From assembly GCF_003334785.1 (NCBI RefSeq), contig NZ_QOWV01000009.1: 64,000 nt of DNA; one strand, 5' to 3'. Every line of letters starts with the position of its first letter. The stretch's first letter is position 1. The position numbers were made by a program, and so were the translations under genes. The notes under the pieces are model-generated. The model had not been told where the DNA came from and made no database searches. It saw only the letters and a program-made list of their open reading frames with translations. This DNA comes from Escherichia coli. Its GTDB lineage: Bacteria; Pseudomonadota; Gammaproteobacteria; Enterobacterales; Enterobacteriaceae. Positions 12,697-13,860 of the stretch are shown one piece after another.

Positions 12697-12713
12697 TACA
12701 ACGTGTAATCACT

Positions 12714-12738
12714 AAGGCCGCGTAAGCGGCCTTTTTTA
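12714..12738 (+). terminator. acrB intrinsic terminator
   Basis: AAGGCCGC-GTAA-GCGGCCTT hairpin followed by TTTTTAT, 18 nt after the acrB stop. Confidence 0.8.
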
Positions 12739-13241
12739 TGCATAACCTACGAACATTAAGGAGTAATTGAACCACCAACTCAGGATCTCATACGAAAACC
12801 AGTATTAACCACGGATAAAATTCATAAAAAATACTGATTGTTAGTTAATTTATATTAAGTAGCGCTAATAGATTTAATAATCCATAATCATTTAGAGGCT
12901 ATTCTTAATTATTTGCGGTAATTCTTTATTCATTCCTCGGTTATTACGTCATATTCAGAGCAATCCTGGTATTAGTGTCACCAATTTCATCTGGCGATAA
13001 TCCTGAAATGTTATGAATAGTTCGAGCAAACTGCTTTTACCTGCTGCGGGTTAGTGCTAGTATGAAAAAGTGAGTCCTGTCCCGCTTCCTTCCTAATTGT
13101 AATTTTTCGTAATAATGCGATGAAAACCTGCAAAGAGTGGCTTATAGTTAAGCTAACAAACGAGAGGGCAAGTCCAGGTCAGTAAGTTTTTTCCATCCCG
13201 AAAGGTGTCCGTTAGTTCAACCGCTAAGAAGGGGACGCGTT

Positions 13242-13616
13242 ATGGATGAATACTCACCCAAAAGACATGATATCGCACAGCTTAAGTTTCTCTGTGAAAC
13301 CCTGTATCATGACTGCCTTGCAAACCTTGAAGAAAGCAATCATGGCTGGGTAAACGACCCAACCTCGGCGATCAACCTCCAGTTGAATGAACTGATTGAG
13401 CATATTGCGACCTTCGCACTTAATTACAAAATTAAGTATAATGAAGACAATAAGCTCATTGAGCAGATCGACGAATATCTGGATGACACCTTTATGTTGT
13501 TCAGTAGTTATGGTATTAATATGCAGGATCTTCAGAAATGGCGGAAGTCAGGTAATCGACTATTCCGTTGTTTTGTCAATGCGACGAAAGAGAATCCTGC
13601 GAGTTTATCTTGTTAG
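13242..13616 (+). CDS. tomB: Hha toxicity modulator TomB (YbaJ)
   Basis: ORF 13242..13616 (+), 124 aa, [31 protein letters not shown]...; immediately upstream of hha. Confidence 0.9.
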
Positions 13617-13641
13617 AATTATTACAACCATAGGTAGAAGT

Positions 13642-13860
13642 ATGTCCGAAAAACCTTTAACGAAAACCGATTATTTAATGCGTTTACGTCGTTGCCAGAC
13701 AATTGACACGCTGGAGCGTGTTATCGAGAAAAATAAATACGAATTATCAGATAATGAACTGGCGGTATTTTACTCAGCCGCAGATCACCGCCTCGCCGAA
13801 TTGACCATGAATAAACTGTACGACAAGATCCCTTCCTCAGTATGGAAATTTATTCGCTAA
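13642..13860 (+). CDS. hha: haemolysin expression-modulating protein Hha (H-NS partner)
   Basis: Internal Met of ORF 13396..13860; 72 aa, [72 protein letters not shown]. Confidence 0.93.

Follow-up and report, generated by a model that had tools for sequence, protein, structure and literature searches.

The tomB-hha operon encodes two modulators of H-NS-dependent silencing, biofilm formation and virulence genes, Hha and TomB, and its switching is therefore relevant. An orthologous operon, ymoBA, has been described in Yersinia pseudotuberculosis, where a transcriptional start site (TSS2) lies 106 nt upstream of ymoB, a CpxR motif has been predicted upstream of it within a 200-bp fragment bound by phosphorylated CpxR (CpxR~P), and promoter activity rises on Cpx activation. 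In E. coli, envelope-stress promoters that are activated by CpxR, such as those of cpxP, yccA and yebE, carry the CpxR box GTAAA-N5-GTAAA, in which two pentamers are directly repeated at a phase of 10 bp, just 5' of a weak -35 region. Both tomB and hha are listed as CpxR targets in RegulonDB, and tomB has been placed in the CpxR iModulon, co-varying with cpxP, yccA and yebE, although the ChIP-exo study that placed it there does not include it among its direct CpxR targets.

The window analysed here, a 64,000-nt stretch of an E. coli contig (NZ_QOWV01000009.1), showed no mismatches to E. coli K-12 MG1655 (NC_000913.3) over 8.5 kb around the acrB-tomB spacer. For E. coli K-12 the main facts on this spacer, namely its promoter and TSS together with inputs from Cpx, PdhR and H-NS, can already be found in published work and in RegulonDB. 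Taken together, our results indicate that this spacer is very probably an ordinary intergenic control region that has been characterised before and not a long leader, and the main gain is that they correct the idea, raised from the sequence alone, of a long leader or a hidden gene in this place. The coordinates were checked against the open reading frame (ORF) list and the K-12 annotation: acrB ends at 12696, and tomB (13242-13616, 124 aa, with homologues matching Pfam PF10757) and hha (13643-13860, 72 aa) follow on the plus strand. The spacer spans 12697-13241 (480,709-481,253 in K-12) and measures 545 bp, as the sequence-only reading had it, being the longest of the 55 intergenic gaps of the window, whose median is 127 bp. 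It is also AT-rich, as had been claimed (GC 0.378, compared with 0.450 in other intergenic DNA and 0.517 in the whole window), and the two 200-nt stretches of lowest GC in the 64 kb, starting at 12801 and 12751 (0.29 and 0.295), both fall within it. No ORF of 60 aa or more was found in the spacer, in agreement with the earlier description, and the longest one lying fully inside it encoded 40 aa on the minus strand. Only weak AT-rich matches appeared when direct, inverted and tandem repeats were sought in the spacer.

The conservation profiling across Enterobacteriaceae that had been proposed was carried out with the spacers of 76 other species, which measured 435-559 bp with a GC of 0.35-0.40, showing that the long, low-GC spacer is conserved; in Mangrovibacter, Apirhabdus and Cedecea the spacers were even longer (562-846 bp). 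Most of the spacer was 3-50% identical in the alignment, in contrast to a block at 13094-13150 that was near-invariant over the 77 species. This block contains the promoter of tomB-hha (P1, 13120-13148, plus strand), in which the promoter scan recognised a -35 hexamer ATGAAA (13120-13125) and a -10 hexamer TATAGT (13143-13148) separated by 17 nt. The two hexamers match the sigma70 consensus at 9 of 12 positions, and they are near-invariant in the 77 species; across the 26 genera TATAGT was invariant and (A/G)TGAAA nearly so. The same hexamers were given for an RpoD-holoenzyme binding site detected in the spacer by SELEX, and ChIP of E-sigmaS gave a peak at 13057-13252. Two natural IS1 variants affect this promoter: FAM21845 has the insertion between the -35 and -10 hexamers, and TUM13773 has lost the promoter by deletion.

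In the TSS dataset of Kim et al. 2012, tomB starts at 480019(-), which corresponds to A13155 of the window, 7 nt 3' of the -10 hexamer (53 reads, 5' UTR of 87 nt), while a homologous promoter with a 97-nt tomB UTR is recorded for Klebsiella pneumoniae; an RNase E study took the 5' end of the tomB transcript as -89. The operon is thus transcribed from its own promoter, ATGAAA-17-TATAGT, at A13155, with an 87-nt UTR (13155-13241, plus strand) that carries a conserved CCATCCC (13193-13199) and a strong GGGG Shine-Dalgarno (SD) sequence within AAGGGGA (13229-13235). In addition, hha has starts of its own in or just after tomB, at about 13528 and 13626, which appear in the dataset with UTRs of 115 and 16 nt.

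Upstream of the -35 hexamer, the near-invariant block contains a direct repeat of the CpxR type, GTAATTTTTCGTAAT (GTAAT-N5-GTAAT, 13099-13113, plus strand, -56 to -42 from the TSS), which was recognised by pattern search, alignment and homology. Its invariant core, TTGTAATTTTTCG at 13097-13109, was identical in 75 of the 77 spacers; the box lay 45 nt from the -10 hexamer in 76 spacers and at exactly -56 in 75 species, and it was the only match to GTAAW-N5-GTAAW in the 64 kb. The direct pentamer repeat, the 10-bp phasing and the position 5' of a weak -35 region are the same as at cpxP, yccA and yebE. The candidate box of tomB differs from the E. coli CpxR box in that both half-sites are GTAAT and not GTAAA, each with one mismatch, and exact GTAAA-N5-GTAAA was present in none of the 77 spacers.

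Conservation of the promoter and the CpxR-type box extends from Escherichia as far as Yersinia and Erwinia, the box persisting in Cronobacter, Apirhabdus, Pantoea, Erwinia and Yersinia. In the last of these it is homologous to GTAAGATTAAGTAAT, located 162 bp upstream of ymoB at the position of the predicted CpxR motif; in both operons the repeat begins 56 bp 5' of a TSS (TSS2 in Yersinia) and the -10/TSS layout is homologous, with 87 nt between TSS and tomB in E. coli. By sequence, homology and the literature, phosphorylated CpxR would bind the invariant GTAAT-N5-GTAAT, centred at -49, and activate a promoter with a weak -35 region, which would tie the levels of Hha and TomB to envelope stress. 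The upstream regions are different. In Yersinia, where the spacer measures no more than 158 bp, a 117-aa gene lies upstream whose stop codon is overlapped by the box and which contains a second TSS (TSS1), whereas in E. coli the box is preceded by acrB, its terminator and an AT-rich stretch of about 350 bp.

An intrinsic terminator of acrAB was found by the terminator scan at 12714-12739 (plus strand), beginning 18 nt past the acrB stop codon. A G+C-rich stem of 8 bp (AAGGCCGC/GCGGCCTT, 6 G-C pairs) with a 4-nt GTAA loop is followed by TTTTTT, and this Rho-independent structure is the best-conserved block in the 5' part of the spacer. The stem showed compensatory changes between genera (AAGGCCGC/GCGGCCTT, AGGGCCGC/GCGGCCCT and GGTCGC/GCGACC), and transcription of acrAB ends here, 18-43 nt past the stop codon. 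Just downstream, the segment 12742-12810 is specific to Escherichia, with a column identity of 0.03-0.08 over the 76 other species and gaps in all the non-Escherichia rows.

The position of A13155 in the published mapping bears directly on the long 5' UTR that had been suggested from the length of the spacer, since only 87 of the 545 bp are transcribed as leader. Because the dataset, a single genome-wide one, contains no other start between tomB and acrA, some 84% of the spacer falls outside the leader, although starts further upstream might be used under particular conditions. We consider it very unlikely that much of the spacer is instead a long tomB-hha leader with regulatory structure, made from a far-upstream start or by read-through from acrB. 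Starts for such a leader could be sought below a TATAAT-like box at 12876-12881, a hexamer kept in most genera at fixed spacing to two other motifs and with a promoter-like score in Enterobacter, or at a weak extended -10, TGCTAGTAT (13055-13063), which corresponds in the alignment to TGCTATAAT of two Citrobacter species. These signs are countered by the single tomB start of the dataset in both E. coli and Klebsiella, by the lack of a consensus promoter at the upstream module in Citrobacter and Klebsiella, and by the strong and conserved acrB terminator. A second ymoBA start of Yersinia, 188 nt 5' of the start codon, could also speak for a longer leader, but this TSS1 is the one inside the 117-aa gene, which is absent from Enterobacteriaceae.

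Structure in the RNA gave no more support to a long leader. The tomB 5' UTR is fairly conserved (identity of 0.5-0.77 across species), which would favour a regulatory leader, but its minimum free energy had a z-score of +0.17, indicating no unusual stability, and the pairing probability of the SD sequence was 0.75 against 0.72 in shuffled sequences. The RNAalifold consensus of 72 tomB UTRs (-5.6 kcal/mol) had an unfavourable covariation term and a sole helix, a 4-bp CCC(A)/GGGG pairing of the anti-SD kind, while short local hairpins (CCGA/TCGG, TTAGT/ACTAA and GGTGA/TCACT) occurred in different clades and were inconsistent. An Rfam search of 12500-14100 with E-values up to 10 returned five chance-level matches, four of which, the best included (E>1), sit on the acrB terminator, and none near the gathering score. 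Thus we found no riboswitch, attenuator or thermosensor, and a far-upstream TSS from which one would be transcribed was absent from the dataset.

In view of its length in so compact a region, the gap had also been proposed to contain unannotated small ORFs or an sRNA. All ORFs of 8 codons or more were followed through the 77-species spacer alignment. The E. coli spacer has ten of them, of 8-40 codons, none of which was intact in the four other Escherichia lineages and each in at most 6 of the 76 species. The one with a good SD sequence, a 13-codon ORF at 12767-12808 (TAAGGAG-N3-TTG), lies inside the Escherichia-only segment and was intact in 0 of 76 species, and another of 13 codons, started by ATG at a motif in 13003-13018, was intact in only 4 of 76. 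A GTG-started upstream ORF at 13208, which overlaps the tomB ATG, was rejected as it is broken in Citrobacter.

A review mentions an sRNA of Shigella sonnei that affects the stability of the tomB mRNA, without giving its locus there. Against an sRNA in this spacer are the lack of a second plus-strand terminator, of a TSS, of any Rfam family and of any annotation, nothing being recorded between acrB and tomB in either the curated K-12 record or 5,424 PGAP genomes. That the spacer hides a small protein gene missed by annotation, or else an sRNA of its own, is in our judgement the least credible of the alternatives, with hardly any probability left to it. The sequence-only reading had itself named a start close to tomB, together with no conserved structure or small ORF, as the observation that would end the hidden-RNA and small-ORF proposal, and since this is what was found, that part of it falls.

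Returning to the spacer as a control region, the same reading had predicted dense regulatory input, and this was supported: besides its mapped sigma70 promoter, to which E-sigmaS binds as well, the spacer has the CpxR-type box, a PdhR-like box, an in vitro H-NS flag and further conserved elements. The AT-rich DNA further upstream, roughly 350 bp long, would lie outside the mRNA and be bound by several proteins, namely H-NS, PdhR in E. coli and factors recognising a number of the conserved elements, which would together modulate the output of the promoter. In the genomic SELEX of Shimada et al. 2014 the spacer was flagged 'HNS' in vitro, alongside the RpoD-holoenzyme site. The A/T tracts that had been noticed as characteristic of DNA bound by H-NS and Hha are indeed present, but their number does not exceed what the composition predicts: homopolymers of 4 or more numbered 9, compared with 6.9 +/- 2.4 in composition-preserving shuffles of the spacer (P=0.24), and the tracts are therefore no more than base composition gives. 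No clear phasing of AA/TT at 10-11 bp was seen in the spacer, and the high-affinity H-NS motif TCGATAAATT had a single match with 2 mismatches, which is not above composition. In having neither the motif nor phased A-tracts enriched beyond composition, the spacer differs from the long AT-rich H-NS-marked spacers of E. coli that it otherwise resembles.

The conserved sequence in the upstream half forms discrete islands, and about 120 bp of it is kept at fixed spacing. Between 12817 and 12881 the 77-spacer alignment revealed an AT-rich module composed of AAAATCATAAAA, CTTATTG (CTGATTG in E. coli, 12834-12840), TTTAT (12849-12853) and the TATAAT-like hexamer (AATAAT in E. coli, 12876-12881). The distance from CTTATTG to TTTAT was 15 nt in 63 of 77 spacers, and that from TTTAT to TATAAT was 27 nt in 53 of 77. 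As a consensus sigma70 promoter the module was called only in Enterobacter, the TSS dataset has no start in 12817-12881, and this interpretation was rejected as inconsistent across genera.

Further downstream lies a palindrome that resembles the boxes of the Rcs phosphorelay. The consensus of the RcsAB box is TaAGaatatTCctA and the site of the RcsB dimer is TN(G/A)GAN4TC(T/C)NA. In Kluyvera, Enterobacter, Raoultella, Salmonella and others the palindrome reads TAAGAATATTCCTA, TAGGAATATTCCTA or TAAGAATATTCTTA, with 13-14 of 14 matches to RcsAB, whereas the E. coli copy, TCAGAGCAATCCTG (12955-12968), is degenerate, matching 9 of 14 positions and failing the strict pattern. Of the 77 spacers, 41 had the strict pattern TNRGANNNNTCYNA and 31 the core RGAATATTCY, where shuffled sequences gave 3.2 and 0.35. 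The palindrome stands upstream of the mapped TSS by a distance that varies between 134 and 270 bp. A third, moderately conserved motif (13003-13018) reads GCTAAC-N3-4-ATGAAT in other genera and GAAATGTTATGAAT in E. coli.

From these sequence patterns we tentatively suggest, as a minority possibility, that most Enterobacteriaceae spacers carry two undescribed functional cis-elements, a near-consensus RcsAB/RcsB palindrome and a CTTATTG-15-TTTAT-27-TATAAT module about 20 bp past the acrB terminator; the palindrome and the module may both be new to the literature. If so, the Rcs phosphorelay would act on tomB-hha besides Cpx, or there would be a condition-specific upstream transcript, and Hha, a co-repressor with H-NS, would come under two envelope-stress systems. 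In the collection of papers searched, no title on Rcs control of tomB-hha/ybaJ appeared, the results being mostly unrelated. For Salmonella, Klebsiella and Enterobacter the palindrome offers a hypothesis that can be tested at little cost.

In regard to the origin, not the function, of the AT-rich 350 bp, this DNA was found only where acrB adjoins tomB, that is, in the Enterobacteriaceae sampled and in Apirhabdus. In Yersinia, Serratia, Erwinia and Pantoea the 117-aa gene, to whose product NCBIfam assigned no family, is placed directly 5' of tomB, and the upstream DNA could be its decayed remains, the gene having been lost once acrAB adjoined tomB in Enterobacteriaceae. The conserved ORF ends in or beside the CpxR-type box in those four genera, it closes with the codons TTG TAA, which match the AATTGTAA standing before the box in Enterobacteriaceae, and its 354 bp are close to the 357 bp between terminator and box in E. 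coli. Nevertheless, tblastn and a profile HMM built from five orthologues, run over all frames of the 77 spacers, detected no similarity (best E-values of 0.21 and 3.7, on mixed strands), and the relic was rejected as a candidate on this result. The discrete conserved islands at fixed spacing are not what uniform decay would leave, and the spacers of Mangrovibacter, Apirhabdus and Cedecea are longer still. Such an origin seems to us improbable.

Finally, the PdhR input was considered. A PdhR operator is a palindrome ATTGGT-N3-ACCAAT near a regulated promoter, and the pattern search found a PdhR-box-like sequence, ATTAGTGTCACCAAT (12971-12985, plus strand), with one mismatch to ATTGGTNNNACCAAT, at -184 to -170 from the TSS. 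It was not conserved outside E. coli. It lies 3 bp downstream of the degenerate palindrome, and decay of that palindrome in the genus Escherichia next to this box in E. coli would be a case of regulatory turnover. The operon has been cited as a direct PdhR target, but the PdhR SELEX peak assigned to tomB in 2020 is located inside acrB, about 570 bp from the PdhR-like box. The pattern had one other match in the window, at 42113, where a perfect box precedes cyoA; this gene is a known target of PdhR, and its box served as positive control. The cyoA-ampG spacer resembles that of acrB-tomB in other respects as well, being the second-longest gap of the window (459 bp), with a GC of 0.359, co-directional flanking genes and a PdhR box.

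The acrB-tomB spacer (12697-13241) is the already known tomB-hha regulatory region together with the acrAB terminator. The window corresponded to K-12 MG1655 ~430.0-493.9 kb in reverse complement, and the 8.5 kb surrounding the spacer showed no difference from NC_000913.3. The spacer separates acrB (9547-12696) from tomB (13242-13616), which is followed by hha (13643-13860) and maa (14032-14583), all on the plus strand. It measures exactly 545 bp and ranks first in length among the 55 intergenic gaps of the window (median 127 bp), and its GC content is 0.378, against 0.450 in other intergenic DNA and 0.517 in the whole window; both 200-nt windows with the lowest GC in the 64 kb (0.29 and 0.295) fell within it. 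The length, marked AT-richness and lack of any ORF of at least 60 aa proposed in the sequence-only reading were thus borne out. The A/T tracts regarded there as characteristic were within the expectation from composition (9 tracts of length at least 4 vs 6.9 +/- 2.4 predicted, P=0.24), with no clear helical phasing of AA/TT, no enrichment of the H-NS high-affinity motif and no repeats of note in the spacer.

Of 5,426 complete E. coli genomes, 5,424 contained the spacer, each at one place or at two at the most. No feature is annotated within it in the curated K-12 record, nor in PGAP genomes except for IS1 transposases at IS1 insertions. When 80 TomB-encoding loci were fetched, one genome per species, 76 spacers could be extracted; they were 435-559 bp long with a GC of 0.35-0.40, so that a long gap rich in AT characterises the family. 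Still longer acrB-tomB spacers were seen in Mangrovibacter (846 bp), Apirhabdus (691 bp) and Cedecea (562 bp).

A consensus promoter scan found ATGAAA-17-TATAGT at 13120-13148. A genomic SELEX study assigned the same hexamers to the site bound by RNA polymerase-sigma70 in this spacer and flagged an H-NS site there as well. In their supplementary TSS table, Kim et al. 2012 give a single tomB TSS (NC_000913.2 480019, minus strand), 87 nt from the ATG, and the sequence upstream of it ends in ...TATAGTTAAGCTA, which together place the tomB start at A13155. Because the adjoining rows of this table are one hha start and one acrA start, no further TSS in the spacer was above the threshold of that study. 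The leader therefore represents only 16% of the spacer, so that the published TSS mapping spoke against the long 5' UTR that had been suggested. A UTR of 97 nt is reported for the homologous promoter of K. pneumoniae, and in an RNase E study the tomB/hha substrate was taken to begin at -89. After coordinate conversion, an E-sigmaS ChIP-seq peak fell at 13057-13252.

In the alignment, the -35 and -10 hexamers lie in a near-invariant block (13094-13150) that also holds TTGTAATTTTTCG(T)AAT. Within it, the direct repeat GTAATTTTTCGTAAT (13099-13113, 10-bp phasing) has each half-site one base off the CpxR consensus GTAAA-N5-GTAAA, and it is the single occurrence of GTAAW-N5-GTAAW in 64 kb. Its distance to the -10 was 45 nt in 76 of the 77 spacers (that of the window and the other 76), and its core started at -56 exactly in 75 of them, the TSS position being inferred from the -10. 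RegulonDB gives tomB and hha as CpxR targets; the CpxR iModulon includes tomB, and the ChIP-exo direct-target list of the same study does not. For Yersinia pseudotuberculosis, a published prediction places a CpxR motif 162 bp upstream of ymoB and 56 bp upstream of TSS2; a 200-bp fragment with this motif was bound by CpxR~P, and Cpx activation raised promoter activity. At our Yersinia loci GTAAGATTAAGTAAT begins exactly 162 bp before the ymoB ATG, with a TATATT -10 and then the published TSS2 position downstream of it, a box/TSS geometry of the ymoBA promoter equal to that of E. coli tomB, suggesting that 13099-13113 is a candidate CpxR box. Cronobacter, Apirhabdus, Pantoea and Erwinia likewise have the box, and so does Cedecea, where its second half-site has diverged. 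Since it is found from E. coli to Yersinia, the core promoter and the box are conserved across the Enterobacterales genera sampled. In Mangrovibacter the box has diverged to GGAATTTTTACACTAT.

In Yersinia, Serratia, Erwinia and Pantoea the immediate upstream neighbour of tomB is not acrB but a conserved 117-aa ORF (L089:1004-1357, L090:995-1348, L092:989-1342, L093:990-1343 and L094:791-1144 of the fetched loci). Its product ends in ...(S/T)(A/P)A(D/N)EL, with the stop codon within the CpxR-type box; it belonged to no Pfam or NCBIfam family, and neither a homologue in the window nor a detectable relic in Enterobacteriaceae spacers was found. In natural isolates the tomB promoter is disrupted by IS1 insertions: in E. 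coli FAM21845 (L084) IS1 separates the -35 from the -10 and has a 9-bp target duplication (13134-13142), and in E. coli TUM13773 (L085) it replaces 12805-13184 (380 bp), with loss of the CpxR-type box, promoter and TSS.

In the literature tomB-hha is cited among the direct targets of PdhR. Only one good candidate for a PdhR box occurred in the spacer, ATTAGTGTCACCAAT (12971-12985, one mismatch); the same pattern search recovered a perfect box upstream of cyoA (42113). A later SELEX study located the tomB-assigned PdhR peak inside acrB. Because of this, and because the box is E. coli-specific and lies at -184 to -170, it is only a probable PdhR site of tomB-hha. With the mapped promoter, the E-sigmaS peak, the CpxR-type box, this PdhR-like box and the in-vitro H-NS flag, the dense regulatory input that had been anticipated was upheld.

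Further upstream, the alignment showed a GCTAAC...ATGAAT motif (13003-13018) and a palindrome at the position of 12955-12968. The palindrome is degenerate in E. coli and Escherichia (TCAGAGCAATCCTG) and reads TAAGAATATTCCTA, TAGGAATATTCCTA or TAAGAATATTCTTA in most other genera (L012, L020, L034, L072 and most other loci), with a perfect copy in Cedecea. The RcsAB box consensus is TaAGaatatTCctA and the RcsB dimer pattern is TN(G/A)GAN4TC(T/C)NA; we take the non-E. coli palindrome to be the former, and it fits the latter. The strict RcsB pattern occurred in 41 of the 77 spacers vs 3.2 in shuffles, and the 10-nt palindrome core in 31 vs 0.35. The palindrome was absent from the spacer in Mangrovibacter, Apirhabdus, Erwinia, Pantoea, Yersinia and Serratia, and in Pantoea its core was inside the upstream 117-aa gene. 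It is located upstream of the tomB TSS at a distance of ~200 bp that varies between species (-134 to -270), indicating that it does not act on the tomB-hha promoter from a fixed activator position. Our literature search found no report of an Rcs link to tomB-hha. A LolCDE inhibitor induced tomB 5.9- to 11-fold, which does not discriminate among Cpx, Rcs and sigmaS, because all three regulons were induced together.

An AT-rich module of fixed spacing (12817-12881), ~20 bp past the acrB terminator, was conserved in most genera, with 15 nt from CTTATTG to TTTAT in 63/77 spacers and 27 nt from TTTAT to a TATAAT-like hexamer in 53/77. As a sigma70 consensus promoter it was inconsistent across genera, and no TSS is listed there. 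In other Enterobacteriaceae, this module and the RcsAB-like palindrome may be new, if modest, leads. The acrB terminator itself was highly conserved, with compensatory stem changes. Next to it lies a 69-bp Escherichia-only segment (12742-12810), single-copy in E. coli genomes, in which a strong SD (TAAGGAG) precedes a TTG-initiated 13-codon ORF that is not preserved in other Escherichia species.

There was no evidence of a structured leader, sRNA or small protein in the spacer. None of its ten ORFs of at least 8 codons was intact in the four other Escherichia lineages, and any one of them was kept in at most 6 of 76 species, which argues against the unannotated small ORFs that had been envisaged. 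The possible sRNA fared no better: the Rfam search gave five matches, all at chance level and four of them on the acrB terminator, with nothing annotated and no further TSS listed in Kim et al. 2012. The tomB UTR is moderately conserved, with SD AAGGGGA and an invariant-looking CCATCCC, and the fold of its 87 nt was no better than that of shuffled sequences (z +0.17). For 72 distinct UTRs, the only helix that RNAalifold returned was 4 bp long and paired CCC in CCATCCC with GGGG in the SD, and the covariation term was unfavourable; short hairpins were clade-specific and inconsistent between clades. The SD pairing probability was 0.75, vs 0.72 with the upstream UTR shuffled. The ORF, fold, helix and SD-pairing results thus lent these candidates no support, and the proposed conservation profiling yielded conserved elements and neither a preserved small ORF nor a consistent UTR structure. 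CCATCCC (13193-13199), near-invariant across genera and complementary to GGGGAT in the SD region, may be an anti-SD, an sRNA site or a protein site; predicted SD occlusion, however, was no higher than in shuffled controls. According to a review (PMC11858733), 'sRNA1600' of Shigella sonnei protects tomB mRNA from degradation and affects persister formation.

Kim et al. 2012 also report two hha-specific starts, with UTRs of 115 nt and 16 nt, at ~13528 (inside tomB) and ~13626 (tomB-hha junction), so that hha can be transcribed without tomB. For the proximal one, TGTTAGAAT (13611-13619) resembles an extended -10. The region's best match to a consensus promoter, TTCGCA-18-TATAAT (13413-13442), coincides with neither start. 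In the hha-maa spacer, TGTGATCTTTATCACA (13938-13953) lies ~80 bp upstream of maa and carries the two half-sites of the CRP consensus TGTGA-N6-TCACA; it was detected solely as a minus-strand hairpin in the terminator scan.
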